A stretch of 63,159 nucleotides of DNA, taken from an uncultured Anaerolineales bacterium. GTDB taxonomy: Bacteria; Chloroflexota; Anaerolineae; CG2-30-64-16. The stretch is taken from positions 1-63,159 of the forward strand of contig CAYLZG010000008.1 in assembly GCA_964387985.1 (NCBI GenBank), written 5' to 3'. The first letter of the stretch is position 1. Every line of letters starts with the position of its first letter. The notes beneath the pieces were generated by a model. The model searched no databases. It was not told where the DNA came from and saw only the letters and a list, made by a program, of their open reading frames with translations. A program made the translations under genes and the position numbers. Positions 7,287 through 51,348 of the stretch are shown one piece after another.

Positions 7287-8465
7287 CTAACGACCCCACA
7301 TGAGGTAGCTCCAGGACAGTCCGTGCTGCGACGTGCTGCCACGCGTCACTAATGGCAGCCAGACCCGATAAAGGGCCGGGCTTGTAGTGACCGTTGCGGT
7401 GGACGTCGCAGTCTCCTCAGGCGTCGCGCTGGGCGTGAGCGTCGCGGTCGAAGTACCAGGCTCAGGTGTCAGCGTAACGGTCGGGGTCGACGTTACGGTT
7501 GACGTCGGAGTGGACGTGTGCGTAGCGGTCAGCGTGGAGGTCACAGTCGGTGTGTGCGTGGCGGTCGGCGTGGAGGTCACAGACGGCGTATTCGTCACGG
7601 TTGGAGTTTGGGTACGAGTCGGCGTACGCGTGGCCGTGCCCGTCTGGATCGGCGTGCGGGTTATCGTCGGTGTGCGCGTTACCGTCGATGTGGGGGTCAC
7701 CGTTGGCGTTCGGGTCACGGTCGAAGTAGGCGTCGGAGTCCACGTCTGGACCGGTGTCTCGGTGATGGTGCTGGTGGCGGTCGGCGTGAATGTCGACCCT
7801 GCATGCGGCGTGTAGGTCAGATACCCCGTCTTCAGCGTCATCGTGTACTTGATCGCCTGGGGCGAACTGACAAAACTACCGGGACTGGCACGAAAAGTGA
7901 TCGTCGTATCGGCAGTAGGCGTCCCGCCTGCCGGACAGTTCGGCACTGCCTTGGTTTGCACCGTGAACGACGCCAGAAGGCCTTGTGAGGCTGTAACATA
8001 AGGAGGCTGAATTAAGAGCAGGCCCGCCTGGATGTGAAGCACGTTGCCGGAAAGCGAGACCTTGGGGTTTGGATTGAATGCCGGAATCGAGGTCGGAGGC
8101 GCCGGCCAAAGACCGCCAGCCAGACTCATCAGCACCGGCGCTGTCGCGAATTTGCAGGCATCGAGCTGCAGGTCGATCTGCCAGGCTGCCTTTTCGCCGC
8201 TGCCGGCGTCACGCATGCGCACCTCGAAAGTGACGGCACTGTTACCGGGCGCGGGGATGGGGTTGCCGGCAGTCGCTTCTGCACCGCCCGGATGCGCGAT
8301 GAAGAACGTGGCAGGGTCGGCCGCGGGCACCAGAACGGCGCGCGTTTGTGCTCGACTCCCGGCCATCGGCTCCCCAGACGCGGCCTGGCCCACGGCGGGC
8401 AATGCCCAAGTTGCCAATAAGCCGATCAAAATCACAACAAGCAACCATGTGCTATGGCGTCTCAT
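7287..8465 (-). CDS. secreted divergent cohesin-like protein with long Thr/Pro linker and WLPLV tail
   Basis: The ATG at 8465 follows an AAGGAG RBS, with a signal peptide [28 protein letters not shown]. An N-terminal beta-sandwich resembles the neighbouring cohesin modules ([13 protein letters not shown]). About 150 aa of TPT repeats follow. The protein ends ...[12 protein letters not shown] plus 18 aa. Confidence 0.7.
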
Positions 8466-8890
8466 AGACGACTCCTTCGCATTGTATACAGTGGTATGGC
8501 CCACAGCCGTGACCGCCAGGCCTGCACCCGGATCAGGCAACTCGTTCCAACGAGCATCGACAGGGCAACAAGCGAGCTCAGCGGCCAACTCATCTCTGAG
8601 TCCATCACTTGAACGCGCACAAGCATGATCACACTCAAGGTACTACGGCAGGAATCGGAACTCAGAGGTGTCAATCAACAGGATGACCCAACGGCCTGTT
8701 TTACCAACGGTACTGGCATCAAGCACACAAGCTGAGAGAAAATCAGCTAGCCGGTGTCCAGCAGGAGAGGGTTGCTTTGGACAGCCTCGGCGCACAAAAG
8801 CCCCAAGACGCGAGACCGCCTCACGAGAGTCGATCTCTTGCTCAGAAAACAATTAAGCGTGAACACTCCCTTTTAGCAAGTACAGAAATG

Positions 8891-8919
8891 AGTATACTCC
8901 AACTCATGGGGCAACGCAA
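8891..8919 (-). promoter_or_regulatory. possible sigma-70-type promoter TTGCGT-N17-TATACT
   Basis: On the - strand the -35 is the reverse complement of 8914-8919 and the -10 is the reverse complement of 8891-8896, with exactly 17 nt between them. This would give a ~420-nt leader before the 8465 start. Confidence 0.3.
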
Positions 8920-8978
8920 AACTTTGAACTCCAGAGGAACGCAGATGGCGTTGCCAGCGAACGTCCTAAGGCGACGCT

Positions 8979-9609
8979 TCAACGACGCATGACCAAAGGC
9001 AGAAGAACCTTCCGGCCGCCGTTTGAAATGATCGTGAAGCGGCCGTCCAGGGCGGTCACATCATACTTGGTGCCGTCCGGCGTGCTGAGGATCGCGAGGG
9101 CGAAGGCGGCGGAGGACTGGTCGGGCGGCGGGGCATCCGGATTGGGGCACGCCACCTGTGTCTTGGCCGTTAGCGTCATCGTGGCGAGCCAGGCCACCTG
9201 AGGCTGTCGTGGAGCCAGCAAGGGCCACCTGCCCCAGATCAATGCGGATGGTGTTCCCGTTCTGCTGGATTTCGGGACCAATAGGGATCAGGGAACCCGG
9301 CACCATGTAATCGCCGAAGAGAATATCTTCGACTGTGGGAGTCTCGAATGTGCATGCATCCAGCAACAACCGGACTTGCCAACCCGCCTTTGGAGACGTG
9401 CCTGCATCGCGGACACCCACCTCGAACGCCACGGCTTGACCGCCGAGGACAGTGATCGGCACAACTGAGGCATCCTGGTGGCTCTCCACATGGGCCACAA
9501 AGAAAGTGGCCAACAGGCTTTGTGCCTGGCTCCGGATGCCGGGTGCCGGAGCCAGAAACCAACTAACCAGGAACAGGATCCCCATTATCTTCGCGCACTT
9601 TTTTCCCAT
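8979..9609 (-). pseudogene. small cohesin-like secreted protein, frameshifted near 9199
   Basis: Two track ORFs (9061..9624 and 8979..9281) in different frames together make one paralogue of the 7287-8465 N-terminal domain. The span is 631 nt (3n+1). The junction is gcc tca g|gtg gcc tgg; removing one G gives ...STTASVAWLATMTLTAKT..., which matches the xxLATIxFxA cohesin strand seen in neighbouring genes. The product ends KVLLPLVMRR. Confidence 0.6.
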
Positions 9610-9626
9610 GATCGCAGCTCCCAAAG

Positions 9627-9657
9627 AAAAGGGCCGGCGCGCTATGCCGGCCCTTTT
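9627..9657 (-). terminator. rho-independent terminator after the scaffoldin-like gene
   Basis: A 12-bp stem AAAAGGGCCGGC / GCCGGCCCTTTT with a 7-nt loop. On the - strand the hairpin is followed by TTTTCTTTGGG. It lies 59 nt past the TAG at 9716-9718. Confidence 0.65.
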
Positions 9658-9715
9658 ATGCTACCACAGCAACGGTTGCAGGCCAACTAGTCAGTCAGCC
9701 TGCAATCATGAACCT

Positions 9716-12700
9716 CTACCTGCTAATGAGCGGCAGGTAGATCCTGTAGATTATAGGAGCAGATGTGCTTGTCGGCGTCGCAGTCGGTTCCGGCGTGTTC
9801 GTCGGCGTGGCCGTTGGTTCCGGCGTGTTCGTCGACGTGGCCGTCGGTTCCGGCGTGTTCGTCGGCGTGGCCGTCGGCTCCGGCGTGTTCGTCGGTGTAG
9901 CCGTCGGTTCCGACGTGTTCGTCGGCGTCGCAGTCGGCGCCAGGACCTCTCCGAAGTTCACCGCCTTGTGTTGGCCGCCCACGATCGTGACAGAGACCGT
10001 GTCGGGTGATGTGCTGATGTAGCCTGCCGGCTGGGTCGCCTGGACTACCTTGTAGGCACCCGGAACGACACCGGAGAACTCGAACCAGCCCGTAGCGCCC
10101 ACCGAGTTAACTGTCTGCAGCAGCGCGTTGGTCGCAGCATTCCGGAGTTGGATCGCGACACCTGGAATACCAGCCGTCTCGCCCGCATCACGGATGCCGT
10201 TCCCATTGGTGTCGATGAAGACCCAGCCAAAGAGCCGCGGCGCTGTGTAGCCAAAGTCCACAGTGAGCTGGCTTTCACCGCGAGCCAGACTGACCGTCTC
10301 CGGGCTGTTACCTGTCGTCAGGAAGTGATTGGCAGGCACGGTGGTCGCATCCACTTTGACCTGATACTGGCCGGCCCGCAATCCATCAAACAGATACTTC
10401 CCGTCCGCGCCCGTCGTGGCCGACTTGTTGACGGCAGCACCGAACTCATCCGTGCCGGTCAGATCGACCTCGACGCCAGCCAGGCCAGGCTCACCCGCAT
10501 CCTGTGTACCGTTCGCATTGGTGTCATACCAAACCTGGTCCCCGATGCTGCTGAGCGCGTAGGGTTTGACACACAATGCGCCACCATAGACCAGTGGGAC
10601 CTGTTCCTGGCCGCGTGTATCCGTCGCCCGAACGTTCAGCAGGCTCAGCGGTGAACCACAGCCCACCTTCAGAGCTGTGAAGTCGATATGCGCGAGAACA
10701 CCATTGCCGCTGGGTCCCGGATTGGGGCCGAAGGAAATCTGGCCATACTCCAGGTTGCCCGCGGCATTATCGATGGTTGGCCCGATCTCGTTGATGGGCC
10801 TGACGGCGCTGATGAAGCCGCCATCGCGCACATCATCCACCTGGGCGATGCTCGCATTCCAGTTCAGCTCGAACTGGAAGCCGCCGAGATCATAGGCACA
10901 CTCGGCAACGACATCCACGGTGAACTGAGGATCAATTACGAAGATCTCCGCGCTCGCCGGCACCAGCTTGATGATGAATGGCTTGACCGCGATGCTGTTA
11001 CTCACTACCGTGTTGGGTTGCACGAACCCGTCGATGTCCGTCAAGATGACGTTGGACAACGTGAGGGAGGACGTGCCGGCCAGCGTCTTGCCGCGGAACT
11101 GGATCACCGCGAGCTTACCATCACCGCTCGGTCCATCCATGGCACCACTGCTGGCCGCACCCACCGAGATCGTCCCCGCCGCGTTGTCGATGATCGGGGC
11201 CGCTGGAATGAGGGTCCGTCCGGTGCTGCCAAGGAAGCCGCCATCGGTAACTCCCACGACTTCCATCAGAGCCGGGTTGAACGCCAGCTTGAACTGGTAG
11301 GCGCCAAGGTTGGATGCATCATCAACCCGAACCTCGACGTTGAACGCGTTGCGGACGCAGGCGGCCTGTGTCACCAAATGCACGTTGGCCGTAGGCAGCG
11401 GCTTGATGATCGCCTTGCCGTCCGTCACCGTCGCGTTCTGCTCGAAGCCCTTCGTCGAAGTCAGGATGACCCTGCTCAAGTCCAGCGGGCTGGTGCCCAC
11501 TCCGATTCCGCGGAAACGAATGGTGGCCAACTTGTGAGGGCCGCCGTTCGCACCCGCCTGGGCGCCACTGGAAATCTGACCATAGCTGATCAGGCCTGCG
11601 CTGACCGTCGGGCCCACCGGGGTTACCGTGCGGCCAGTGGCCGAAATCAGCGTGCCACCGGTCAACGACACATACTCCAACACGTCCTTGTCGTATGCGA
11701 GGTTGAACTGGAAGGCGCCGAGGTCCGCTGCAGCGCTCACCATAACATTCACATCAACGAAGTCGCCGATTTCCTTCGTCTGCGTGATCGGCTGGATGTA
11801 GACCTTGGCGACGGGCAACGCACTGACTGTGACTTGGCCCGAACTTGCGGTCGAGGGCTGCGCGTAACCAAGTGTCGTGGTTGCGATCTGATTGGAGAGT
11901 GTCAGAGGGGACGTACCAGTAGCCATCGCCTGGAAGTGCAGTGTCACCAGATCACCCGCGCCCTCAGGACCAGCGGCAGCCCCGGTGCTATACTCACCAT
12001 ACGCCACAACACCCGCCGACAGGCTAGTCGTCGGGAACACAGTACGGCCAGTGCTGTGCAGGAAGCCAGCAAGCGGATCGCTGGTCCCTATGAACTGGAG
12101 TTTTGCGGGATCATACGCCAGCTTGAACTCGAATGCGCCCAAGTCCACGGCGCCGTCAATGTGGATCTTGATGTAGACATCGTCACCAATGGTGACCGTC
12201 TGGTCCGCGGGCACAACGCTGAACTGTGCACTTGACAACTGCGCGACACGGACGACGCCGTCCACAGGCACACTGCCTTGCACGACACCGGCCGCAGTCG
12301 TCAAGATCACATTCGACAGATCGAGCGGGCTGGAACCAGATGCGATCGCTGTGAACTCGATGGTGGCGAGGACCTGCGGGCCACCGGTAGGACCAGTCGC
12401 AGCAGCTGAAAACTGGCCGTAGCTGATGGCACCTGGGGTGATCGTCGGGCCGAGTGCGGTAACTGTTCCCAGATAATTACCGCCTGTCAAGCCTTCATAG
12501 GAAAGCACGGTCGGGTTGAATGCCAGGTTAAACTGGAACGAACCCGAGTTCAACACATAGTCAGCCACCACATCCACCGTGAACGTATCCCCCAAGGTCA
12601 CATCCTTGGAGGCCGGAACGATGCGCACGTTGGTGATGGTTGATTCCACCTTTACGCTGCCGTTGGTGGTCGTGAACGGGAGGCCACCGAGGTTAGTCTT

Positions 12701-13177
12701 CGGTGCTGCTGCGAAGGTGAGCGATGAGGTGCCAGCAGCGACGGCTTCGAACGTGATGGTCGCCAAGACACCCGACCCATCCACGCCGCCACCCAGGCTG
12801 ATTCCACCAAAGGCCACGTTGCCCGGGCTCAGCACCGGGCCCACGCTGATTGCAGGCTGAGCCAGGAAGGCAGTAGCCCCGCTGACGCTCAGAGCGTGGA
12901 TCAGTGAGTTGTTGTAGACCAACTCTACCTGATACCCTTCCAATCCGATCACGTCTTCCACGCGAACGTCAACGGTGAAGGTTTCGCCCACGCGCGGGTT
13001 GGTGGCCGGACCAACCAGGCGCAACTCGGCAACGCTGCCTTGCGTGTTCGGCTGGGCGACCGGCGCGGCAATCGCCAAGCCACTGGAGCCAAGCAACAGC
13101 ACCAGCAGGATAACCAAGGCCCGGCCCAGTGATCCGCCATACCGGCGAAACGGCCGAGTAGGATTGGGTAGTTTCAT
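9716..13177 (-). CDS. scaffoldin-like protein: six tandem cohesin modules, two Cna-B/SdrD-type domains, [10 protein letters not shown] repeats and a YLPLISR tail
   Basis: The ATG at 13177 follows an AGGAGAAG RBS; the track's upstream extension overlaps the preceding gene. There is a signal/TM segment ([18 protein letters not shown]). Six ~135-aa repeats (roughly 10560-13030) each carry L(G/E)(A/G)(F/Y)(Q/E)F.LA(Y/F)(D/N)P and ..LATI.F.A blocks. Two SdrD-B-like units follow ([28 protein letters not shown]... and [17 protein letters not shown]...). The C-terminus is ...[12 protein letters not shown]. Confidence 0.85.
9769..9942 (-). repeat. 30-bp coding tandem repeat (5 full copies plus partial flanks)
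   Basis: The units at 9781-9810, 9811-9840, 9841-9870, 9871-9900 and 9901-9930 differ by 1-4 nt. They encode [10 protein letters not shown] decapeptides in the scaffoldin linker. Confidence 0.85.
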
Positions 13178-13232
13178 GAGAACTTCTCCTTGCGAATGGT
13201 CAACAGGCCGGATGCCCGCTGCGCTGAAGATA

Positions 13233-14336
13233 CTACTTGCCGGCGCCCCGCGTGCTCTTCCGTCCGCTGTGCCGCCAGAGAAAGATGCCGCCGGCGCCCA
13301 AAAGCGCGCCAAAGCCGATGAGAACAGGTCCGACGATGCTGCCAGTACCGCCTGAAGACGGCGGAGGCGGGGTCGCACCGGGCACGGTCGTGTCTTTCGG
13401 CGCAAAGATGGCCGTTTCGCCGGGTCGCGGGGTCAAGCTCGGCAGTGCGCGCGGCGTAACCGTCCCCAGAGCGATCGCGGTGCGCAAAGCATGGGCCGTG
13501 GCGGTCGCCACTTTAACGATCTGCGTTTCGATCGGTTCAGGGGTGTCCGTTGGTGTCTCCGGGGTCGGAGAGGCCAATGGAGTATCGGTGGCGCCCGTTA
13601 CCGCCACGGTTGAAGTCGATACGGCAGACGTCACAGACGTAGAGCTGTCGAAGGTAGCCGGCACTGTAACGTTCGGTGCCGCGGTTGCAGCCGGTGTTGG
13701 CCCAGCCACCTCGGTGGCCGGCGCCTCCATCGTGATCGTTGCCGGCGCGAGTGTTGCCGTTGGTAGAACAACATCGCCCGTGAAAACAACTTGTGCGCCT
13801 TGCACGGAGGCCGAAATCCCCGTTCCTTGCGTGTCGGCCAGCCGCACATCGGACAACACCAGGCTACCTTCGCCGGCCCGGAGGGCTGTGATGCTGAGGG
13901 TGACCAACACACCGTCACCGCTCGCGCCAGACGTCGTCCCGAGTGTCACCGCACCTGCGCTTACTCTGCCTGTCACCCGATCGTCCTTGATACCGACCGG
14001 AATTACCGTGCGGTTCGTACTGCCGATGAATGGGCCAAGCTTCGCTTCATCAATCTGAACCAAGGCTGGATCGTATGCGAAGACCAACTCAAAGGCGCCC
14101 AGGTCGTTGACACCTTCGACTGCTACGTTAACTTCAAAACGCTCGCCGGCCGCACGCGCGATCTCCGCAGGAGTCACCAGGATGGTGGCTTGCTCCTGCA
14201 GGGTTGGAGCCGCGCCGGTAACGACGGTCGAGCCGACCAAGCCAAAGAGAATCAGAGCCACCGTGATCGCACCCAGGCGAAGCCCACCGTGACTGGAAAA
14301 GATCCCTCCGGCTTGTACGCTTCCAACAAGCGGCAT
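13233..14336 (-). CDS. single-cohesin protein with Thr/Pro linker and C-terminal TM anchor (candidate anchoring scaffoldin)
   Basis: Signal/TM segment LGAITVALILFGLVGSTVV. One cohesin module (VNDLGAFELVFAYDPALVQI..., GVLVTLSITALRAG). T/P/A-rich linker. Tripartite C-terminus: PPSSGGTGS, then a hydrophobic helix IVGPVLIGFGALLGAGGIFLW, then a basic tail RHSGRKSTRGAGK. Confidence 0.8.
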   Translation of the reverse strand: MPLVGSVQAGGIFSSHGGLRLGAITVALILFGLVGSTVVTGAAPTLQEQATILVTPAEIARAAGERFEVNVAVEGVNDLGAFELVFAYDPALVQIDEAKLGPFIGSTNRTVIPVGIKDDRVTGRVSAGAVTLGTTSGASGDGVLVTLSITALRAGEGSLVLSDVRLADTQGTGISASVQGAQVVFTGDVVLPTATLAPATITMEAPATEVAGPTPAATAAPNVTVPATFDSSTSVTSAVSTSTVAVTGATDTPLASPTPETPTDTPEPIETQIVKVATATAHALRTAIALGTVTPRALPSLTPRPGETAIFAPKDTTVPGATPPPPSSGGTGSIVGPVLIGFGALLGAGGIFLWRHSGRKSTRGAGK

Positions 14337-14358
14337 AAATCCCTCATGTCCACAGACA

Positions 14359-14398
14359 CACTTCTACCCCAGCCCCAGTGAGGGCTGGGGTAGAAGTG
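14359..14398 (-). terminator. perfect 17-bp stem-loop
   Basis: CACTTCTACCCCAGCCC (14359-14375), loop CAGTGA, GGGCTGGGGTAGAAGTG (14382-14398). It lies between the dockerin gene stop and the 14336 start. Confidence 0.5.
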
Positions 14399-14430
14399 GG
14401 TTCGGTAGTGTAGCTTATTCAGGTGGAAGC

Positions 14431-14461
14431 GAGGTCACTGCGCACCTGGCGCAGTGACCTC
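14431..14461 (-). terminator. perfect 13-bp stem-loop 13 nt after the dockerin gene stop
   Basis: GAGGTCACTGCGC (14431-14443), loop ACCTG, GCGCAGTGACCTC (14449-14461). No T-tract follows. Confidence 0.5.
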
Positions 14462-14473
14462 ACTATCAGAGGT

Positions 14474-17400
14474 TCAGAAATGGCACGTGTCGCCGATATG
14501 GTTGATGACCTTCATGAAGTCGATCACGGTGATCACACCATCACCGTCCACATCGTATGCGGCCACCCAGTTCGGGCTGGCTGCCGTCTCTTGCCAGTGC
14601 GGCACCATCATCAAGACATCATTGACGGTGACCTCGGTGTCCTGGTCCCAATCGTAGTTCAGGTCGCAATTCGGGACGCAGGGATCAGTGCCCTTCAGCA
14701 TTTCCTGGATGTTGGTGTAGCCATCGGCATCCGGATCAGCAGTAGCATCGGCCACGGTCGCCTGGAGGCAATCGTACTTGACTTCATAGCCGTCAGGCAT
14801 GAGGTCGGCGTCGGTGTCCCTCTTCAGTGGATCGGTGCCGTAAACATCGATCTCATCACCGTCCTTCAGACCATCACCGTCGCTGTCAGCCTTCATTGGG
14901 TCAGTGCCCTTGGCGACTTCCTCGCCGTCCATCAGGCCGTCATCGTCGCTGTCAGGGTCCGTCGCGTAGGTGCGGTAGATGAAGAGCTCCTCGCCGTCCT
15001 TGAGCCCGTCATTGTCAGTGTCTGCCTTGGTGGGATCGGTCCCATAGTACTGGACCTCATCGCCATCACCGACCCGATCGCCATCGGTGTCGGCGTCGCA
15101 CGGATCGGTGCCAATCTTGACTTCATCCCCGTCCAGCAGGTAGTCGCCATCCGAGTCAGGGTTGCTGATGAGGGGGCAGGCACCCATTTCCTGGGCATCC
15201 GGCAGGCCGTCGTGGTCGAGATCGGATATGTCATCCAGGCCATTCTGCGGGTTATGGGGGTAGCCCATCTCGGACAACTGCCATTCGACGAAGTCGGTCA
15301 CGCCACCGTCATCGGTGTCCGGCATCGTGCAGCTCGTGGTATAGCCGTCCTCACCCAGTCTGCCTTCTTCCCCGTCGTCCAGGCCATCATTATCGGTGTC
15401 GGCCTTGGTCGGATCGCATGACTGCCAGCTGCCCGGGCCACCGGGGTACGGAGCAGGGACACGCCCATTAACTTCTACGCCATCGCTCCAGCCGTCATCG
15501 TCGGTGTCCCTGTCGCACGGATCGGTCTTGAGGCCGAATTCCTGCACATTTGTCAGAGTGTCACCATCCGCGTCCAAGGCTGCGTCGCCCGGAATGAGGG
15601 GGCTCAGCGAAGCGCATTGGCCATAGGTAACTTCCCACCCATCCGGCATACCGTCCTCGTCGGTGTCGGCAACGCACGGTTTGGTGCCAAGGGCCTTCTC
15701 TTCGACATTGGTCAGGCCATCCACGTCAGGATCGGCCGCTGCGTCGTCCACCAGCGCGTCCAGGCACGAGTTGGCGAGCTCGTAGCCGTCGAGCATGGTG
15801 TCGTCATCGGTGTCGATGTCACAGGGATCGGTGCCGGCATTCATCTCATCGATGTTCAGAGCGCCGTCGCCATCCGTGTCAGAGGCGTTGTTCGCCGTCA
15901 GCGGGCTCAGACAGGCATTGTGGATCTCGTAACCATCCAGCATACCGTCGTCGTCGCTGTCGGGATCACACGGCTCACTCTTGTTGATCTCCTCGATGTT
16001 GGTCGCGCCGTCATCGTCAGGGTCCGCATCCGCATCGTCTACCACCGGGTTGAGGCAGGGTCGGATCGTCTCATAGAGGTCCGGCAGCGCATCACCGTCG
16101 GTGTCACCATTGCACGGGTCGGTCTCATCACCGGAGTACGCCTCGCCGTCCCGGCCCAGGTATTCCGCCAGGTTGGTCAGGCCATCCGTATCCAAGTCCC
16201 CGCCAGCATCGTTGACAAGCACGTCGAGGGCGCAGCCAGCAGCTGCCTTATCGACCTCATACTTGTCGTCCATGCCATCCCCGTCGGTGTCATAGTAGCA
16301 TGGCTCGCTGACGTTGTATTCCTGAATATTGGTCAGGCCGTCGCCGTCAGGATCCGCAGCCGCGTCGTTCACCAGCGCGTCCAGGCAGTCGCGCATGAGC
16401 TCGTACCCATCGAGCATGCCATCTTCGTCGGTGTCGGCGACACACGGATCGGTGCCGGCCTTCATCTCCACGATATTGGTCGCGCCGTCGCTGTCCGGGT
16501 CACGGTTCCGGTCAGCAACCTTCGGATTGAGACAAGCATTGGCTAACTCGTAGCCGTCGTTCATGGTATCGTCATCGGTGTCGGCGTCGCAGGGATTGGT
16601 ATTATCCCCGGTGGGCGGGAACGTGAAATGATCCGCCGTCCCATCCGAATACTTCAGCGGCTCCAAGCCATCCTTGCCCAGGTATTCCGCGCCACTGAGA
16701 GCGCCATCGGCATCCGGATCTTTGTCGGCATCCGCCACGAGCGCGTTCAGGCACGCATTGCCGTCAGCATCTGTGGCGTAGAACGCCTCGAAGCCGTCAT
16801 TCATGCCATCGCCATCGGTGTCGATGTCGCAGGGATCGGAGCCAACCGTGAACTCATTCAAGCTGCCGAAGCCATCCAGGTCAGGGTCAAGGCCCTTATC
16901 GTCGACCACCGGGTTCAGACACGCATGGGCAGCCTCATAGGCATCGGGCATGCCGTCCGCGTCGGTGTCCTTGACGCAGGGGTTGGTCTTGAGAGCCATC
17001 TCCTGGATATTGGTCAGACCGTCTTCATCTGCGTCGTCATCGGCATCCGCCACGGTGGCATCCAAACATGCATTGGCCCACTCGTAGTCGTCGGTCATGC
17101 CGTCGCCATCAGAGTCGTTGCTGCACGGATTGGTGCCCATGAGGTATTCGTTCAGGCTGCCCTGGCCATCCCCATCCGGGTCTTCGCCTCTGTCGTCGAA
17201 GTACAGAGGATCCAGACACTCATGGGAGACCTCGAAACCGTCAGGCATGCCATCCGCGTCAGTGTCGGCAGCGCATGGGTCAGTGCCGGCCGCCATTTCC
17301 GCGATGTTGCTCAGGTCATCATCGTCGGGATCAGCGTTGGCATCAGCCGTGATCGGCTTCAGGCAGGGGTTCGCCACCTCATAGTCATCGGGCATGCCGT

Positions 17401-17968
17401 CGCCGTCGCTGTCCTTCGACAGGGGGTTGGTGAGATGGGTGTTTACTTCCGCCCCGTCCGACAATGTGTCACCATCGGTGTCAGCCTTCAGCGGATCGGT
17501 ATGGTACACGATCAGCTCGGACGAGTCCTTCAGTCCATCACCGTCGGTATCAGACTTCGTGGGGTCGGTGCCAGCCTGGAACTCGGCCAGGTTAGACAGG
17601 TTGTCACCGTCTTTGTCGCCGCCCGCATCCGTCGGATCCAGCGGGTCCAGCCCAAAGTTCTTTTCCCAACCGTCAGGCATCCCGTCGCCGTCCGTGTCCC
17701 ACTTGAGGGGATTGGTTTCACCGGCGTCCTGGATGGCGTTGGCATTAACATCTTCTTCATAGCCATCGCGCAAGCCATCTGCGTCCGTGTCGGGGTTGTT
17801 AGGGTTAGTGCCCCAGATCGTTTCAGCAGCATCGCAAAGGCCGTCGAAATCGGCATCGGGCGCAAGGGCCGGACACACAGGATCGGCCGCAAAGGCCGCA
17901 CCGGCTGTAAATGCCATGACCATCGCGACAATGGCCAACAGCGCAAGCCATTTCATCTTGGCGTGCAT
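14474..17968 (-). CDS. secreted Ca-binding thrombospondin-type-3-repeat protein with C-terminal dockerin
   Basis: The ATG at 17968 lies after a GGAGGAGAG RBS, with signal peptide MHAKMKWLALLAIVAMVMAFTAGAAFA. About 1050 aa consist of D.D.DG..D..E (TSP3) units organised in ~37-40-aa Cys-containing modules (..PC..DTD.DGM.DGYE....CL.P.V.DA..DPD.DGL(T/S)N..E...GT.PC). A C-terminal dockerin follows. Confidence 0.85.
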   Translation of the reverse strand: MHAKMKWLALLAIVAMVMAFTAGAAFAADPVCPALAPDADFDGLCDAAETIWGTNPNNPDTDADGLRDGYEEDVNANAIQDAGETNPLKWDTDGDGMPDGWEKNFGLDPLDPTDAGGDKDGDNLSNLAEFQAGTDPTKSDTDGDGLKDSSELIVYHTDPLKADTDGDTLSDGAEVNTHLTNPLSKDSDGDGMPDDYEVANPCLKPITADANADPDDDDLSNIAEMAAGTDPCAADTDADGMPDGFEVSHECLDPLYFDDRGEDPDGDGQGSLNEYLMGTNPCSNDSDGDGMTDDYEWANACLDATVADADDDADEDGLTNIQEMALKTNPCVKDTDADGMPDAYEAAHACLNPVVDDKGLDPDLDGFGSLNEFTVGSDPCDIDTDGDGMNDGFEAFYATDADGNACLNALVADADKDPDADGALSGAEYLGKDGLEPLKYSDGTADHFTFPPTGDNTNPCDADTDDDTMNDGYELANACLNPKVADRNRDPDSDGATNIVEMKAGTDPCVADTDEDGMLDGYELMRDCLDALVNDAAADPDGDGLTNIQEYNVSEPCYYDTDGDGMDDKYEVDKAAAGCALDVLVNDAGGDLDTDGLTNLAEYLGRDGEAYSGDETDPCNGDTDGDALPDLYETIRPCLNPVVDDADADPDDDGATNIEEINKSEPCDPDSDDDGMLDGYEIHNACLSPLTANNASDTDGDGALNIDEMNAGTDPCDIDTDDDTMLDGYELANSCLDALVDDAAADPDVDGLTNVEEKALGTKPCVADTDEDGMPDGWEVTYGQCASLSPLIPGDAALDADGDTLTNVQEFGLKTDPCDRDTDDDGWSDGVEVNGRVPAPYPGGPGSWQSCDPTKADTDNDGLDDGEEGRLGEDGYTTSCTMPDTDDGGVTDFVEWQLSEMGYPHNPQNGLDDISDLDHDGLPDAQEMGACPLISNPDSDGDYLLDGDEVKIGTDPCDADTDGDRVGDGDEVQYYGTDPTKADTDNDGLKDGEELFIYRTYATDPDSDDDGLMDGEEVAKGTDPMKADSDGDGLKDGDEIDVYGTDPLKRDTDADLMPDGYEVKYDCLQATVADATADPDADGYTNIQEMLKGTDPCVPNCDLNYDWDQDTEVTVNDVLMMVPHWQETAASPNWVAAYDVDGDGVITVIDFMKVINHIGDTCHF
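14477..14671 (-). other. dockerin module (two EF-hand-like segments)
   Basis: The sequence is DWDQDTEVTVNDVLMMVPHW ... DVDGDGVITVIDFMKVINHIG, i.e. duplicated D.D.D(G)..(T/V)..D loop-helix units typical of dockerins. It is the only such module in the window. Confidence 0.75.
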
Positions 17969-18399
17969 AGGACTCTCCTCCAAGGGTGCAGAAAAATGAG
18001 TGGTGGTAGAAAACCGATGCCGGTTACCATGAGATAGCCGGTAGAACGCAAAACGAAGTGAGACAAAGGTTACCCGATAATCACCTCCTTTGCAGCGTCA
18101 GTCTTGGTAGACCGGTGGGATATGCCCCAGATGAAACTGGCGAGCCGCGGGAAATCGCCGATGGGAAGCCAGAGAACATGGACTCTGGCAGGGTGGCCGA
18201 ACGTAATCACACACACTTCATCCTGTCAATCGGAATGGCGGTGACGCGGCCACCGTACAACGGTGCATAATGCACTTCCTACTCGCTTAGTCGCCAAGGG
18301 TAAGGCAATCCTTCGCAAATTTGTGCAGATTTGAGCAAGAATATCCGTTGAGATCACATGGCATCCGGTGGGAGCCCCAGGGAGCAACGCGCGTCGCCT

Positions 18400-20430
18400 C
18401 TATCCGGAGCCCAATCGGCCGCATTGCCGTTGATAGATCTGTCCGTCGGCGACCAGTGTGGAACAGAATTCTGCGTCGGCCTCCAGCTCAGTCCAGCCAC
18501 GCAGAGTGACGGCGATCAAAGCCGCGGAATACAGCCGCCCCAGACGTACAACGACAGTATGGTCTACCACGCTGACCAGCCCCATCGTGGTCAGCACATC
18601 GGAGAGCCGGCAGCCATGATTGAACTCCACGTACAGGTAGGCGCTGTCGGCTGCAATCGCGCCAGGGTTGCTCACCACCAATGTGGCCCCGCTGCGGCCG
18701 ATGGTGAGCTGACCCCCGGAATTGCCCAGCAGGGATAGTGTGGGCAACGCCCCAGTCGGGTCGGTGTCGCTGTCTGACGCGACAGTTCTGTCACGGGGAT
18801 CAGAGGTCGGGACCCGCACGCTGGGCAACGGTCCGCAAACATCGGGTAAGCGGATGCCATTGCTGACTGTAACGCAATGCAAATCAGCCGCGGGCTTGGC
18901 GACGGCAGGTGCGCGCACGGTCAAGCGCACGACGACCTGCTCGCCCGGTTGCAGGACGCCCAAGCTGATCCGCAAGCGGCCCTCAACGATACTGACGAGC
19001 CCCTTGCTGGCGGCAGCGCCGGCAAGATTCCAACCTGGTGGCAATGCATCGATCAGCGCGATGGGCTGCGATGCCAGATCTCCGTCATTGCGCACGACGA
19101 AGGCAAGTTGTGCCACCTTACCAGCGATCACCGGCTGCGGGCGGTCCTCCAGTGCCACCAAAATGCGGGCTTGAGGCCACGCGGTTGGCGAGGGTGACGG
19201 CAGCAGTGTCGCCGTGGGCGCGCGGCTCGGCGTGCTCGTTGGAGTGCTGGTCGACGGCACTCTGGTCGGCCACCAAGGCGTAACGGTCGGCACATCCATG
19301 GCCCCGCCAGAGGGCGTTGCCGTGCGCGTGCGAGTGGGTGGCACCAGTGTTGCGAGATTTGCAGTTGCTGTGGTTGTGGGAGTAGATGATCGCAGAGTGG
19401 GTGTGGCGCTGGACATACGCGTGGCAGTCGCTGTCGGAGGCAGCGGCGTCCAGGTAGGCTGCTCTGTCGGCTGAGTAACGGTCGGCGGGATCGAAGTAGG
19501 AGGCCGAGCCGTAGGTGTGGCGGTGGGAGTCGGCATCAGCGTGACAGTAGCAGTCGGTGTCGGCGTGGTGGTTGGCGTCGCCGTTGGCGCGTCGGTGGAT
19601 GTTGCGGTGGGCGAGGGCAGCAACGTCGGAGTAGCGGTCGGCACGGCGGTGGATGTCACCGTCGGAGTAGAAGTCGGGCGGGGCGTCATAGAGGGCGTAT
19701 GAGTTGGCACCCGGGTGCGCGTGGCTGTCGGTGAGCTTGTTGGCTGCGGAGTTGCGGTTGCGGTCGATGTATTCGTCGGCACTGGCGTTTCGGTTGCAGT
19801 GGCCGTCAGGGTAGGTGCAGAGGTACTAGTCTGCGTTGGTGTGGCTGTGTGTGTAGGCACCGGGCTCGGAGTGTGGGTGGGCATGCGAGTTGGAGTATGC
19901 GTGGCATGGGGCGTCGGCGTGAGCGTCGGCGGAAGAGGACTGCGGCTGACCACGAAAACGTTATCCCCGTACGTGCCAGGCTCCAGAAAGCCAAACAAGA
20001 TGCCAGCCGGCCCCAAAGCCGCACCACCAGGCCCGGGTCGCACCTGGACTGCCTCATACTCTGCTCCTGTCAGGATTAAACCGAGGTAGAAATGGCTGTA
20101 GGAGAGCTCAGTACTGAGCCTGAAGGTACCATCCGACCGGACGGCGGTTCCCCACAGGAACTCTTGCGGTCCTGCAGCCGTACCACCCATCAAGCGAATC
20201 GCAAAAGCCTGCGGGTTCTCGGGCGTCAGGCCATCCTGATCCTGAACCGTACCGGCAAATGTCCATGTGTCCGCGTCTGGCACCAGGTCGAGCTCAGCAA
20301 GGTCGATTCCAGGATTTGCAGGAGCCGCGCCGAAAACGACCATCGCAGCGAGCCACTGCAATGCCAGCAGCAGCAGACTGACCCCGATGATCGCAGTAAG
20401 CCGTTGGCGAGATAGCGCGCGTCGGCCCAC
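18400..20430 (-). CDS. secreted/anchored protein with ~250-aa Thr/Pro-rich region and DUF11-like C-terminal repeat domains
   Basis: GTG start after a GAGGGGA RBS, 34 nt downstream of the anti-sigma stop. Signal anchor [24 protein letters not shown]. Long TPTPT tract. The C-terminal beta-sandwich repeats resemble the 'conserved repeat domain' ([12 protein letters not shown]..., [12 protein letters not shown]). Confidence 0.65.
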
Positions 20431-20464
20431 TGTCCCCTCAAAGACCTAAAGAAGCACTCCTACC

Positions 20465-21922
20465 CTACTGGGCAGGCTCGTACACGATGACCGACTCAAG
20501 AGTAATACTGTTGCCAGCCGGATCCGTGGCAACCAGATTGATTGGGTTAGCGCCAAGCGCCAGAGGAAGCTCTTGCGAGAAATCTCCCTGTTCATCAACG
20601 ATTACCGGTTCACCGTTGGCGAACAGTGTAACCCCCGGTTCAGTGCTACCAGCGAGGGATACCGAACTCGTCGTAACCTGGGGGTCGGAAGGGCTGGTCA
20701 ACAACAGGGGGGGATGGGTATAATCTACAACGACAGTCTTGACCGGCGCAGCCAGGCTCGCCTCGCCCGTTGCTGTCTCCATGCTAGCCGTAATCCGATA
20801 GATGCCCTCGGAATCAGGAGTGAAATCGACCGCAGCCACTCCATCGTCGTTGGCGATCATCTCCTTCAACACGACATCGTTGACATAGAAGGCGACGCGA
20901 GCGCCAGGGAGCGTCTGAATCACCCAAGGCATCGAGGTCGTATTCACAAAGTAGCGCTCAGAGGCATTTTCGCCCCCACCATCTCTTTCCGCCAATGCGG
21001 TCGATGACATGCGAGGGGGTTGAGGGCGCACATTAACCTCGGGCACGGATTCGCCCAACCGCACCATCAACTCCCGGCCGGCCTCGATATCGAATGCCTT
21101 CCCGTCGAAGCTGACGCGCACCAAGCCCTTGTCGGTGGCGACGCGAGTCTTATCGGACTCCACACCAACCCGAAAGACGGTACCCTTTACATGAGCCACC
21201 AGACTAGGGGTGCTAACCTCGAACCGTTCGCCATTCTCCGGTCGCAAACGCTCAACTTGCGACCGCACCTCACCGCGCTCCAATCGCATTGCGACGACGA
21301 GCGGCTTGGAAGCCGAACGCGCCTGAAGTTCTTCCACCGTCAATTGCGCGCCCGAACCTACCGCCATCTTGCTGCCGTCAGAGAGCGCGATCTCAGCTTC
21401 GGTCGCGCTGTCGCTGCTGAGCTGGTCGCCCGGTCGCAGCCGAACTAGCTGACCGGGCGATACCGTGATCGAACGCATAAGCCCGGTGTCAATGAAAAGA
21501 CTCACGGGGCGGGCGATGTGTAACTCACCGTCAATCACGCTAAGGGTAGCGACCTGACTGCGCGGGTCCAGCGAAGCGAGTCTGCTCACCAGCACAGCAC
21601 CCAGCGTGAGAATCAGCACCGCACCCAGCGCGACCATCGCCAGGCGCAGTCCATATCCAGTGTGCGACGGCGAAACCTCGCGGCCTGGACGCGGAGCGGA
21701 CTGAGCGGATGGTGCAGACCTTCGCCACCAAGAGCGCTTTGCGCGCCGAGACGCCTGCGCGGCGAGCTCTTCCAGTATGATGCCGCGTAACCGGGCCACA
21801 TATTCCGGGCGCATCGGCAGCGGTGTACGCCTCAATGGGGCAAACGCAATCGCAAGCTCGTCCTCAACGTTGAGAGGAGTCTCTTGATTAGGTGCTAAGT
21901 CCTGCGAGACCATGTCGCTCAC
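20465..21922 (-). CDS. anti-sigma factor with FecR domain and extracytoplasmic Ig-like C-terminal domains
   Basis: The start (GTG at 21922 or ATG at 21913) overlaps or abuts the sigma gene's TGA at 21919-21921. The order is a cytoplasmic N-terminus, one TM helix (LRLAMVALGAVLILTLGAVLV), a FecR-like block (GELHIARP..., ALSDGSKMAVGSGAQLTV..., HVKGTVFRVGV), then two Ig-like beta domains. Confidence 0.75.
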   Translation of the reverse strand: MSDMVSQDLAPNQETPLNVEDELAIAFAPLRRTPLPMRPEYVARLRGIILEELAAQASRRAKRSWWRRSAPSAQSAPRPGREVSPSHTGYGLRLAMVALGAVLILTLGAVLVSRLASLDPRSQVATLSVIDGELHIARPVSLFIDTGLMRSITVSPGQLVRLRPGDQLSSDSATEAEIALSDGSKMAVGSGAQLTVEELQARSASKPLVVAMRLERGEVRSQVERLRPENGERFEVSTPSLVAHVKGTVFRVGVESDKTRVATDKGLVRVSFDGKAFDIEAGRELMVRLGESVPEVNVRPQPPRMSSTALAERDGGGENASERYFVNTTSMPWVIQTLPGARVAFYVNDVVLKEMIANDDGVAAVDFTPDSEGIYRITASMETATGEASLAAPVKTVVVDYTHPPLLLTSPSDPQVTTSSVSLAGSTEPGVTLFANGEPVIVDEQGDFSQELPLALGANPINLVATDPAGNSITLESVIVYEPAQ

Positions 21923-22533
21923 CTGTATCCGGGACTGGCATCCACAAGCCGTTCCCGCAGCGCCGCACGAGCTCGGGTCAAGAGCGATTCGACCGATTTC
22001 TCCGATCGCGCCATGATCTGCGCGAGCTCACTGACCGCTAACCCATCAATGTACTTGCCCACCAGCACGGTCCGATAATCAACGGGCAGCGCATGAAGAG
22101 CCTGTTCCAGAATCTGCTGCTGCGCTAACTCACCCTCGACCGATGGCGATGCACTGGCCAAATTCCCCAACTCATCAAACGTTTCGGATGAGAGCCGCTG
22201 GCGCGAGCGTTGCTGCTGGCGAACATAGTCCTGAACCTTATGCCGGGCAATAGCGCACAACCAGGTGTACAGGCTGCAGTCGCCCCGGTAACGTGGCAAC
22301 GAGCGTAGCGCCGCGACCATCGTCTCCTGCAAGACATCCTCCACATCCGGCGTGTTGTCACCGCCCATCGTCCGCCAGATGAAACGGTACAGCTTAGGCA
22401 CATAAGTCGCGAACAGGTCTTCAAGCGCGCGCTCATCACCTGCCCGAAGGCGCGCCACATAGGCGCGCTCATCGAGGCACCCCTCTGTTGTGCTATCGCG
22501 TTTCGCATCAGCTGAGATGCCGATAGTGATCAC
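21919..22533 (-). CDS. ECF-type RNA polymerase sigma-70 family factor
   Basis: 204 aa. Region 2 (LEDLFATYVPKLYRFIWRTMG...DVEDVLQETMVAALRSL, YTWLCAIARHKVQDYVR) and region 4 (LPVDYRTVLVGKYIDGLAVSELAQIMARSEKSVESLLTRAR) are both present. The exact start is uncertain; the longest frame begins with GTG. Confidence 0.85.
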   Translation of the reverse strand: MITIGISADAKRDSTTEGCLDERAYVARLRAGDERALEDLFATYVPKLYRFIWRTMGGDNTPDVEDVLQETMVAALRSLPRYRGDCSLYTWLCAIARHKVQDYVRQQQRSRQRLSSETFDELGNLASASPSVEGELAQQQILEQALHALPVDYRTVLVGKYIDGLAVSELAQIMARSEKSVESLLTRARAALRERLVDASPGYR

Positions 22534-22687
22534 AATCTCTGTGCACCTAATAAGTCGTTAGAGAGTGCCTGAATCCTGCGAACAACCTGACAATCGAACT
22601 GCGCAAGCGGTCAGTAATGTATAAGGCACAGGCCAACCCAGAAAGGAGTGCGAGTCAAGGACTGAGTCCAATATTACCTTGATTATA

Positions 22688-22741: not shown

Positions 22742-22770
22742 TTGACAGGCCGGATACTTTGCGCTATAGT
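22742..22770 (+). promoter_or_regulatory. near-consensus sigma-70 promoter TTGACA-N17-TATAGT for the PKS operon
   Basis: -35 at 22742-22747 and -10 at 22765-22770 with an exact 17-nt spacer. It lies ~80 nt upstream of the ATG at 22850, which is preceded by a GGAG RBS. The surrounding spacer is AT-rich. Confidence 0.55.
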
Positions 22771-49998: not shown

Positions 49999-50103
49999 CC
50001 CGCATCTGCGCCACCACGGTCTTCGACCTGTCACAGCGCATCGAGTCGACACAATCTGGGCTTTTCTGCTGCGGAACGGCAGAAATCCTAATTGGAGGCA
50101 AAC

Positions 50104-51348
50104 ATGAAGCATAGAGCTCTCTACCATCGATTGGTCCTCGTGACCGTTGTCTTGGCGTTATTGTTGGCGTCGAACGCCGCAGCCAGCGTGTCTGGCTTGA
50201 GTACTATCGTCAGGACCCAGGAGCCCGTGGTGATCCTGGGCAGCGAGTTGCCCGCGTTCCTGGGTGTCCCGGTGACGCAATTGCACGTTTACGCTTTCGA
50301 TGCAAACCAATGGGTGCGGCTCCCCGCCCAGGTAGATGAGATCGATCTGGGGGACAAGTATGTGGAATTAGAAGACGGCTTACTCGATGCCAATGACCAG
50401 ATCGTTTTCATGGCGAGGGACCTCGGTGAGTTATCGGGAGGACGCGCGCCGGCAATCGGCGACGGGAGCCTTGCGCTCTCTTGGTACGAGGCCAAAGTCA
50501 GCGATCCAACACATTCCGGAGCTCAGGGCTGGGCCTACGTTGTGCGAACTGGCTCTGCGCCTCCAGGGGGCACTCCGGACTACGTAAGCTGGAATGCGGC
50601 AGAGCACCGGATCATGGGGAGCAACTACACGCTGGGCTTTGAAAGTCCGCGGCCATGGCTAGACTACCTCGCTCTTGGCTCGAGTGGCGTCGACATCCTT
50701 GACCGCGCACCTAAATACCGTTTCTGTCGGGCGTTGCTCTGTTTGAATGAGAACCTGGCCCCGGATACGCCGGACGGACTGGTCAAAGATGGACCGGTGC
50801 GCGTCATCCTGCGCGAGGGGCGCATCATAGCTTATGGATGGATGGCGTCTTCTGAGATCCCGCTCACGATTCCGTCCGTCGTCGCGCCTGACTGGCTGCG
50901 CTTCTCTGTTGATCTCAACTCTGCCGCGACAGGAGCCCTCTATTATAACCAGGCTGTGCCGGGTGGCGTCTTAGTCGACGGTTCGCCGGATGCTGTACCC
51001 GAATTGCCTTTGAGCACCTGGAATCAGATCAGCCATAGCACGGGAACGTTTGTGCATGTGTTTGACGTTAGCGAGTTAGGCGGCGCCCCGATCAACTACT
51101 ATCTTGACAGTTCTGCCATCGACAACCAAGATTCCGGTGACAAGATGCACTTCGGTGATTCGGGGGTCCGGGTGGATATGCCGAACCTGAGCTTTACATT
51201 CCGAACCGTGTTCTACTTCCTGAACGGTCCGCAGCCCAATGTGGGTGCAGACTATGCCAGCTATTACAACCAGCCGCTCCAGGTCGACACGCAGTGGCAA
51301 CAGCTGATTCTGCCACCGCGTCAGTATTTGCCACTGGTGCTGCAGTGA
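50104..51348 (+). CDS. secreted hypothetical protein with YLPLVLQ tail
   Basis: The ATG at 50104 lies 5 nt after GGAGG. It has a signal peptide (LVLVTVVLALLLASNAAASV). I see no recognisable catalytic motif. The C-terminus is ...LPPRQYLPLVLQ. Confidence 0.55.
   Translation: MKHRALYHRLVLVTVVLALLLASNAAASVSGLSTIVRTQEPVVILGSELPAFLGVPVTQLHVYAFDANQWVRLPAQVDEIDLGDKYVELEDGLLDANDQIVFMARDLGELSGGRAPAIGDGSLALSWYEAKVSDPTHSGAQGWAYVVRTGSAPPGGTPDYVSWNAAEHRIMGSNYTLGFESPRPWLDYLALGSSGVDILDRAPKYRFCRALLCLNENLAPDTPDGLVKDGPVRVILREGRIIAYGWMASSEIPLTIPSVVAPDWLRFSVDLNSAATGALYYNQAVPGGVLVDGSPDAVPELPLSTWNQISHSTGTFVHVFDVSELGGAPINYYLDSSAIDNQDSGDKMHFGDSGVRVDMPNLSFTFRTVFYFLNGPQPNVGADYASYYNQPLQVDTQWQQLILPPRQYLPLVLQ

Follow-up and report, generated by a model that had tools for sequence, protein, structure and literature searches.

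An enzyme-free cohesin–dockerin locus beside an ECF sigma/FecR-type anti-sigma pair in an uncultured Anaerolineae bacterium, with a predicted shared promoter motif

The DNA analysed (contig CAYLZG010000008.1, 63,159 nt; this whole stretch is called the window) carries at 7287–22533 a locus of eight genes, all co-directional on the minus strand (open reading frame (ORF) listing and translation). An extracytoplasmic-function (ECF) sigma factor, an anti-sigma factor and a secreted third protein are followed by a dockerin-bearing protein with thrombospondin type 3 (TSP3) repeats, a one-cohesin protein with a C-terminal transmembrane (TM) helix (the anchor protein), a six-cohesin scaffoldin and two short cohesin-like genes. 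A preliminary description of the sequence had listed these eight genes and their domains, including the ECF sigma factor with a FecR plus Ig-like anti-sigma factor, a single dockerin, the TM-bearing one-cohesin protein and the six-cohesin protein; Pfam/NCBIfam and hydropathy bore this out for six of the eight genes, the remaining two short proteins being without match. The genes, in the order of transcription, are as follows (Pfam Cohesin PF00963 cut-off, 24.1 bits):

21919–22533, minus strand: ECF (group IV) sigma-70 factor, 204 aa; Pfam Sigma70_r2, Sigma70_r4_2, Sigma70_ECF; NCBIfam TIGR02937
20465–21913, minus strand: anti-sigma factor, 482 aa; Pfam FecR (4e-12), Glucodextran_B (1.9e-9), Big_6
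18400–20430, minus strand: gene 3, secreted protein rich in Thr and Pro; double DUF11 (CLIPPER)-like region at the C-terminus
14474–17968, minus strand: secreted TSP3-repeat protein ending in a dockerin, 1164 aa; TSP3_bac (3e-66) in 10 stretches
14477–14680, minus strand: the dockerin module of this protein, two F-hand Ca loops with conserved flanking Cys; Dockerin_1 36.2 bits (cut-off 22.9)
13233–14336, minus strand: anchor protein; signal peptide, one cohesin (5.7e-9, 36.7 bits), Thr/Pro/Ala spacer of ~150 aa, C-terminal TM helix, basic tail
9716–13177, minus strand: scaffoldin, 1153 aa; signal peptide, six cohesins (6.5e-47, 159.7 bits), two SdrD_B domains, Thr/Pro linker, C-terminal tail
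8979–9609, minus strand: short cohesin-like gene, frameshifted near 9183–9188; both halves match the family profile in two frames
7287–8465, minus strand: short cohesin-like protein, 392 aa; signal peptide, cohesin-fold domain, long Thr-rich linker, tail

The same genes in the same order were found in locus L001 (identity: scaffoldin 53%, TSP3-dockerin protein 61%, anti-sigma factor 68%), which holds the one close homolog of the scaffoldin; a third syntenic locus, L168, was reached via its anti-sigma ortholog. The same gene order in these independent metagenomic contigs argues for more than chance. The order TSP3-dockerin protein, TM-anchored cohesin, multi-cohesin protein with a YLPL-type C-terminal tail recurred in the window, L001, L168 and the distant L082/L083, the last with two additional cohesin proteins, one of them carrying an internal dockerin. 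The L001 scaffoldin gene (9953–14023) encodes seven cohesins, module 4 being duplicated (copies 74% identical), and a DDE transposase gene (16144–17286) lies just downstream of that locus.

The sigma factor contained regions 2 and 4 only and gave 98 bits with TIGR02937 (cut-off 42.9). The anti-sigma start was set at 21913, 6 nt past the sigma stop, by a database copy (P0087); hydropathy and Pfam gave a cytoplasmic N-terminus, a single TM helix (aa 91–109), an extracytoplasmic FecR domain and a C-terminal Ig-like domain. Neither RsgI_N nor a carbohydrate-binding module (CBM) was found in the anti-sigma factor (Pfam), nor a TonB-dependent receptor in the window or the orthologous loci (Pfam). 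Two near-exact 8-residue anti-sigma patterns retrieved no relative from the genome collection, in which the closest genomes are only ~90% identical in DNA. The sigma/anti-sigma pairing was kept in six loci, and homologs of gene 3 directly followed the anti-sigma gene in L001, L165, L166 and L167 (blastp, 1e-55 to 1e-72); gene 3 is the invariant third member of a sigma/anti-sigma triad. Its earlier assignment as DUF11-like held for the orthologs (L167, 30.7 bits; L166, 26.5 bits) and fell short for the window protein itself (21.7 bits; gathering score 24.6). DUF11 (CLIPPER) domains are known from fibrillar adhesins, and many members carry an intramolecular isopeptide bond (bioRxiv 10.1101/2025.04.25.650565).

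The start of the TSP3-dockerin protein was placed at 17968 by alignment with the L001 ortholog and is preceded by a GGAGGAG Shine–Dalgarno sequence. The protein has 32 DxDxDG motifs, 26% Asp + Glu and 34 Cys; its scores with the NCBIfam models CglD (219 bits; cut-off 400) and MtsD (106 bits; cut-off 800) were below cut-off, the similarity being limited to the TSP3 repeats. Both dockerin loops, DWDQDTEVTVND and DVDGDGVITVID, retain Asp at positions 1, 3, 5 and 12. An AlphaFold2 (AF2) model of the module (predicted local distance difference test, pLDDT, 82.6) was superposed on type II dockerins with a root-mean-square deviation (rmsd) of 1.0–1.5 Å over 53–63 residues, and a profile search of PDB sequences likewise placed it nearest to type II (CipA XDoc, 6.6e-8). 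The Cys residues flanking the dockerin were invariant and possibly form a disulfide clasp. A protein search with the dockerin profile returned three fragments; a metagenome scan with the TSP3-dockerin alignment was dominated by unrelated TSP3 proteins, with a cohesin match in 1 of 80 loci (L099, weak).

The dockerin profile also gave a score to calmodulin EF-hands, and the 2009 survey of Peer et al. in FEMS Microbiol Lett is said to contain many non-cellulosomal cohesin and dockerin modules without a shown partner. Together with the strong divergence of the short cohesin-like proteins, this would agree with a set of co-regulated surface proteins that do not interact, in which the cohesins would have only a structural or adhesive, Ig-like role and the dockerin would be no more than the EF-hand Ca2+ module of the TSP3 protein, all within a shared envelope regulon. 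Such an arrangement is considered quite improbable in view of the full two-loop dockerin scoring above the Pfam cut-off, with its model at ~1 Å rmsd from type II dockerins, and of the adjacency of dockerin and anchored cohesin, strict in four loci despite 35–60% sequence divergence. A further point on the same side comes from L167 (13659–20862), in which the promoter motif described below is followed by genes for a SpaA_4 protein and a 1012-aa beta-propeller/DUF7933 protein with a dockerin; the latter is 68% identical to the window dockerin, so that the dockerin, not the cargo, is conserved between the two loci.

Orthologs of the anchor protein stand at the same position in L001, L168 and L082. 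The scaffoldin start was set at 13177 by a copy of the protein itself (P0001); its Pfam content was cohesins, SdrD_B, SpaA and CarboxypepD_reg only. Signal peptides were found by hydropathy on every exported product of the locus. In a profile search of PDB sequences the cohesins were nearest to type II modules (ScaB, 1.4e-11). No SLH (S-layer homology) domain or LPXTG motif was found in either protein, the anchor ending in a TM helix and the scaffoldin in a YLPLISR tail; no dockerin was found in the scaffoldin (Pfam, regular expression). A scaffoldin without dockerin cannot dock on the anchored cohesin, so that the two cohesin proteins would be anchored independently. This does not agree with the cellulosome parts list (anchoring scaffoldin, multivalent scaffoldin, dockerin-bearing cargo) that had been proposed, since the six-cohesin protein has its own C-terminal tail in place of a dockerin. 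Tandem DNA repeats at 9771–9937 (30 nt × 5.6) and 7516–7723 (18-nt and 36-nt units) encode scaffoldin and Thr-rich linkers, which are likely sites of length variation.

The six scaffoldin cohesins were 31–45% identical among themselves and 58–71% identical to the L001 modules of the same position. Low identity within the protein and higher positional identity mark them as old paralogs, each maintained individually, and speak for non-equivalent roles. A complete module of one plus six cohesins and one dockerin, as previously suggested, is therefore doubtful: the cohesins are non-equivalent and the same dockerin subtype occurs on the L167 cargo, which makes more dockerin clients elsewhere in the genome likely. 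A rival reading is a general docking platform, a rack of several specificities for dockerin proteins encoded elsewhere (proteases, propellers, possibly carbohydrate-active enzymes), with the TSP3 protein as a neighbouring client and the enzymes outside the window. It is in line with the 1:1 conservation of each cohesin with L001, with the window dockerin subtype on other cargo (L167, and P0129, a fragment with a Thr/Pro linker), with fusions, in related metagenomes, of cohesin homologs to dockerins and to peptidases of subtilase or papain-like type (P0038, P0060, P0064), and with the L082 protein combining cohesins and an internal dockerin. On the other side, no dockerin-bearing enzyme was found in the 63 kb, and in four loci the cassette invariably begins with the TSP3-dockerin gene, which argues for a core component, not an incidental client. 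The platform as such appears somewhat unlikely.

The absence of glycoside hydrolases, CBMs and SLH domains, stated earlier for the locus, extended to the whole 63-kb window (Pfam, all large ORFs); the same search gave no carbohydrate esterase or polysaccharide lyase domain and no second dockerin (the latter also by regular expression), and no cohesin was found in the window outside the locus.

When intergenic regions were compared between the window and L001, one shared motif emerged, AGGATT-N13/14-CGACT, whose layout is typical of ECF promoters. Two sites were assigned in the window:

22553–22577, minus strand: P_sig, candidate autoregulated ECF promoter, AGGATT-N14-CGACT, 20 nt before the sigma start codon
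18289–18312, minus strand: P_TSP3, candidate ECF promoter, GAAGGATT-N13-CGACTAA, in the 416-nt gap, ~320 nt before the TSP3 start

These were the exact matches in the 63-kb window (2 found vs 0.12 expected; two were reached in 1 of 100 shuffles), both on the coding strand, before the sigma gene and before the TSP3-dockerin gene. L001 carried the motif at the same two places, and in the alignment with the window it formed an island of conservation. The copy before the sigma gene was also present in four of four further loci not used in the derivation (L165, L166, L167, L168), i.e., in six of six overall; the second copy, after gene 3, was exact in L167 and had one mismatch in L168, giving cargo-operon copies in four loci with the window and L001 included. 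A third copy with one mismatch was noted in L167 at 21012–21035. Unrelated fetched loci (1.56 Mb) contained one match. The P_sig/P_TSP3 element provided the only 9-mers common to four leaders, apart from one Shine–Dalgarno-like block. The recurrence of the motif at the same places in orthologous loci argues that the sigma factor drives the operon, and the copy before the sigma gene fits autoregulation; the motif suggests an ECF-type promoter shared by the sigma gene and the TSP3-dockerin operon. A link of the sigma factor to the locus, as anticipated in the preliminary description, is thus predicted from the window and from the orthologous loci. A relaxed motif search before the anchor, scaffoldin and short cohesin-like genes was negative.

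Further transcription signals were located as follows:

18073–18091, minus strand: conserved leader block AAAGGAGGTGAT..TATCGGG, within the leader of ~320 nt (17969–18288)
14359–14464, minus strand: two perfect hairpins separating the TSP3-dockerin gene from the anchor gene, with stems of 16 and 18 bp and without a U-tract; minimum free energy −78.5 kcal/mol, z = −8.7
9620–9657, minus strand: strong intrinsic terminator after the scaffoldin gene, 12-bp GC stem followed by UUUUCUUU (folding)

In the window, L001 and L168 the leader block precedes the TSP3 start by ~110–150 nt; it resembles a perfect Shine–Dalgarno sequence with start codon, the ORF behind it having 4, 23 and more than 20 codons in the three loci. 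An Rfam search of the locus, this block included, gave no match. L001 has the same two-hairpin layout at the same place (8555–8641) in unrelated sequence; the twin hairpins may act on mRNA stability or attenuation and so set the ratio of cargo to cohesin. In L001, folding gave an equivalent terminator after the scaffoldin gene. A scan with sigma-70 and terminator consensus patterns gave matches fewer or no more numerous than in shuffled sequence and missed the terminator later found by folding. The eight genes had been taken as one block; at least two candidate sigma-type promoters, the twin hairpins behind the TSP3-dockerin gene and the terminator that follows the scaffoldin gene, with the short genes beyond it, speak for several units instead.

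The start of the 392-aa short protein was set at 8465 by a database copy. The ORF 9061–9624 of the other short gene was not intact: its frame carries on to 8979, and the restored form would end in KVLLPLVMRR; an intact ortholog from another metagenome (P0118) ends in KVFLPLIMVQ. The frameshift site (9183–9188) is not a homopolymer, and several other family members in databases also look frameshifted; the gene is either a real pseudogene or the result of an assembly error. The two proteins are paralogs and gave no Pfam/NCBIfam match. The comparison of their family with the locus cohesins by hhalign gave 91.9% probability (E 6.9e-7). For the domain of the 392-aa protein an AF2 model was obtained (pLDDT 83.5; predicted template modelling score 0.81), and in Foldseek against PDB its top 30 matches were all cohesins (E down to 1.2e-7; target-normalised TM-score 0.6–0.7), those of Archaeoglobus fulgidus and Clostridium perfringens included. 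By these models the two short proteins are divergent cohesin folds, as had been proposed for both; one of the two genes is not intact. The family is rare (17 matches in 1.84e9 representatives). Both genes sit past the scaffoldin terminator, and the promoter motif was absent there even with two mismatches allowed.

The scaffoldin and the short proteins share a C-terminal tail, consensus hydrophobic-x-[YFWQ]LP[LIM][IV]x[KRQ], which usually follows a Thr/Pro linker and occurs in many secreted Chloroflexota proteins. In the window it was found at four places, and also in L001, L053, L060, L067, L075 and L082:

9716–9750, minus strand: tail of the scaffoldin
7287–7370, minus strand: tail of the 392-aa short protein
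8979–9010, minus strand: tail of the frameshifted short gene
end of 50092–51348, plus strand: tail of one further window protein

Related tails close proteins of L001 and L082, P0118 and many remote cohesin homologs, and also non-cohesin ORFs of other Chloroflexota loci. Members of the short family end in either an LPL tail or a TM anchor; this alternation points to the tail as an analog of the anchor. No match to curated sorting-signal models (LPXTG/sortase, PEP-CTERM, GlyGly-CTERM, MYXO-CTERM and others) was obtained at the C-termini with NCBIfam, and no description of the tail was found in the literature on Chloroflexi sorting signals. It may be an undescribed envelope-retention signal.

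Taken together, the locus can be read as a sigma-regulated, Ca2+-dependent, non-enzymatic cohesin–dockerin surface assembly for adhesion or matrix formation, for which the chances are judged to be evenly balanced; probably it is also a docking platform for cargo encoded elsewhere. The rack of several specificities described above is its main rival and is compatible with much of it. According to the proposed mechanism, the ECF sigma factor would be held at the membrane by the single-pass anti-sigma factor until an envelope or surface cue, sensed by the FecR/Ig ectodomain and possibly by the co-encoded DUF11-like wall protein, frees it. Free sigma factor would act at P_sig, for the operon of sigma, anti-sigma and DUF11-like genes, and at P_TSP3, for the operon of TSP3-dockerin, anchored-cohesin and scaffoldin genes ending at ~9620–9657. 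All products would be exported by the Sec route; the C-terminal TM helix of the one-cohesin protein would keep it at the membrane, with a Thr/Pro spacer, and the six-cohesin scaffoldin would be displayed on its SdrD_B stalk and retained by the Thr/Pro linker and YLPLISR tail. The acidic TSP3 protein, rich in Ca2+ sites, would insert its dockerin into one or more of the locus cohesins, the adjacent anchored cohesin being the most conserved candidate partner, and the remaining non-equivalent cohesins would probably recruit dockerin proteins encoded elsewhere. A Ca2+-dependent multivalent protein coat would result, acting in adhesion, filament–filament cohesion or matrix organisation. Domain identities, folds, topology signals, the terminator, and the conservation of gene order and promoter motif are what the sequences show; dependence on the sigma factor in vivo, the binding partners, what the tail does and the physiological function are what we infer.

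The adhesion or matrix function is hinted at by analogy only: likeness of the TSP3 repeats to Myxococcus CglD/MtsD (below cut-off), SdrD_B stalks, DUF11 (CLIPPER) domains and Pel-like genes near related sigma loci. Several observations weigh against the surface assembly so described. The window holds one dockerin vs nine cohesin-type modules, which, with the 31–45% identity among the cohesins, means that the TSP3 protein may be a minor client. The tail is of ~12 residues, with no hydrophobic stretch of TM length and no basic tail, and we know of no processing enzyme for it. P_TSP3 lies ~320 nt from the TSP3 start, its assignment as a promoter being made by sequence only. In L165 and L166 the triad is present with no cohesin or dockerin within 10 kb, so that the primary target of the sigma factor is probably gene 3; in the L082 cassette a relaxed search gave no motif in the retrieved region, the upstream part lying outside it.

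Triads on their own, the negative L082 region and the 416-nt gap between the two parts of the locus would all be expected if the adjacency were accidental, i.e., if the sigma pair controlled its own operon only and the cassette were a neighbour under different regulation. This is judged very improbable: a second motif in the right orientation is present in that very gap (window, L001, L167, and L168 with one mismatch), and it is nearly absent from the 1.56 Mb of unrelated loci. The occurrence of the triad alone or with other cargo elsewhere rather makes the locus a junction of two modules, the triad and the dockerin–cohesin cassette.

A wider synthesis was also formulated, in which Anaerolineae would build a regulated protein matrix outside the cell, crosslinked by Ca2+; a family of structural proteins tagged with dockerins (TSP3, beta-propeller and others) would be addressed by the code of the six non-equivalent scaffoldin cohesins, all would belong to one ECF sigma regulon (AGGATT-N13/14-CGACT), and the cohesin proteins would be fixed to the envelope by an undescribed Chloroflexota-wide C-terminal tail, hydrophobic-x-[YFW]LP[LIM][IV]x[KRQ], interchangeable with a TM anchor; as a whole it is speculative and rather unlikely.

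Among known systems, the clostridial cellulosome (C. thermocellum CipA, anchors of the SdbA/OlpB/ScaA type) resembles the locus in its multivalent scaffoldin, cell-bound cohesin and Ca2+ dockerin on a secreted partner, and type II cohesins and dockerins are the nearest solved relatives of the locus modules. It differs in that the locus has no dockerin-bearing glycoside hydrolases, CBM, SLH or X-module and no dockerin on the scaffoldin, and in the strongly divergent scaffoldin cohesins, the TSP3 cargo and the host, which belongs to the Chloroflexota and not to the Bacillota. A cellulosome proper was rejected for the window (no dockerin-bearing carbohydrate-active enzymes, scaffoldin CBM, scaffoldin dockerin or SLH/sortase anchor). 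Non-cellulosomal modules (Archaeoglobus fulgidus cohesin, 2xdh; Clostridium perfringens NagJ/NagH, 2ozn) likewise represent cohesin–dockerin parts outside plant cell-wall degradation, but they are isolated or glycosidase-borne, whereas in the locus an anchor, a hetero-multivalent scaffoldin and a non-enzymatic cargo make up a conserved operon, with a predicted dedicated regulator.

In the SigI/RsgI systems a sigma factor is held by a membrane anti-sigma factor with an extracellular sensor and activates cellulosome genes (PMC12484212). The parallel drawn earlier with these systems stands for the functional logic, an alternative sigma factor and a sensor anti-sigma factor predicted to switch on cohesin–dockerin genes; it does not extend to family membership, the sigma factor being a two-domain ECF factor and the anti-sigma factor FecR + Ig-like instead of RsgI_N + CBM, with no hint of a carbohydrate signal. 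A SigI/RsgI homolog was accordingly rejected (sigma matches to ECF models only; anti-sigma FecR/Glucodextran_B/Big_6). With FecI/FecR/FecA of Gram-negative bacteria the locus shares an ECF sigma factor with a single-pass anti-sigma factor of FecR domain type and a predicted autoregulated promoter, but it has no TonB-dependent transducer, its third partner is DUF11 (CLIPPER)-like, and its predicted targets are surface structural proteins, not iron uptake.

The scaffoldin is comparable to the staphylococcal MSCRAMM adhesins SdrC/SdrD (N-terminal binding modules, Ca2+-dependent SdrD_B stalk, low-complexity linker, C-terminal retention signal) and differs in having cohesins as binding modules, a Thr/Pro and not Ser-Asp linker, and a YLPLISR tail without LPXTG, TM helix or basic tail. 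Disulfide-containing, Ca2+-binding TSP3 repeats in extracellular adhesion proteins are likewise found in Myxococcus CglD/MtsD; unlike these, the window protein is below the family cut-offs and has no VWA domain and no lipoprotein signal. TSP3 and dockerin repeats co-occur in giant proteins of Omnitrophota (bioRxiv 10.1101/2023.11.21.568195), whereas the window protein has a single terminal dockerin with the cohesins adjacent in the genome. Non-cellulosomal cohesins and dockerins and TSP3-dockerin combinations are thus already known; in the literature on Chloroflexi/Anaerolineae cohesin–dockerin systems, TSP3 with dockerin, and Chloroflexi ECF/FecR, the cassette, its ECF control and the promoter were not found described.

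Cohesin and dockerin modules occur far beyond the cellulolytic clostridia, and their role there has been open for more than 10 years. The locus, with its relatives, is a compact test case, with a conserved three-gene cassette free of enzymes, a predicted dedicated regulator and a promoter motif that can be mutated; recombinant domains would allow the binding of one dockerin to nine cohesin modules to be mapped although the host is uncultured. Designer scaffolds would gain orthogonal parts from the non-equivalent cohesins and from a dockerin with a putative flanking disulfide. In anaerobic digesters and granular sludge, filamentous Anaerolineae are abundant; with the nearest genomes coming from reactors, a regulated protein matrix could bear on floc or granule formation.

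The host was assigned with the ArgG protein, which showed 97–98% protein identity (~90% DNA) to that of Anaerolineae metagenome-assembled genomes of anaerobic reactors; it is an uncultured member of the Anaerolineae (Chloroflexota), congeneric with these genomes. Exact look-ups of the window's own proteins gave no record. Arginine-biosynthesis genes lie in the left flank, together with genes for an aldo-keto reductase and a rhodanese-like protein. A mobile island was rejected, the GC content of the locus being close to that of the flanks and the rhodanese-like gene being found also in L001. Opposite the cohesin and TSP3 genes run long ORFs (10688–12235, 16628–18037 and 15617–16546, all plus strand) whose translations mirror the repeats and are rich in Arg, Val and Gly; they are most likely not genes.

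Pel-like genes for exopolysaccharide (DUF3492/PelF-type glycosyltransferase, PelG) were observed beside related sigma/anti-sigma loci and dockerin genes (L166, 11752–13296; L169, 828–3222 and 15072–16619). In L084 (5585–17396, Chloroflexota-type) several cohesin proteins stand beside a different ECF sigma factor with a DUF5667 anti-sigma factor; cohesin genes paired with an ECF system of their own may be a recurring arrangement.

At the far end of the window (59125–63087, minus strand) an ORF of 1320 aa gave no family match except a sub-threshold MopE-like metal-binding motif. The right flank (22850–58964, plus strand), divergent from the locus, is a large cluster of polyketide/glycolipid type, toward which a near-consensus sigma-70 promoter points (TTGACA-17-TATAGT, 22742–22770). 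It encodes two multidomain proteins resembling polyketide and polyunsaturated fatty acid synthases (enoyl reductase, ketosynthase, acyltransferase, acyl carrier protein, ketoreductase, dehydratase, phosphopantetheinyl transferase); a phosphodiesterase, a hydrolase, a short-chain dehydrogenase/reductase, a glycosyltransferase, a sulfotransferase, a methyltransferase and a lipase; and a major facilitator superfamily protein, ABC-2 and two HlyD proteins. The cluster looks like a locus for the synthesis and export of a glycolipid or sulfolipid.

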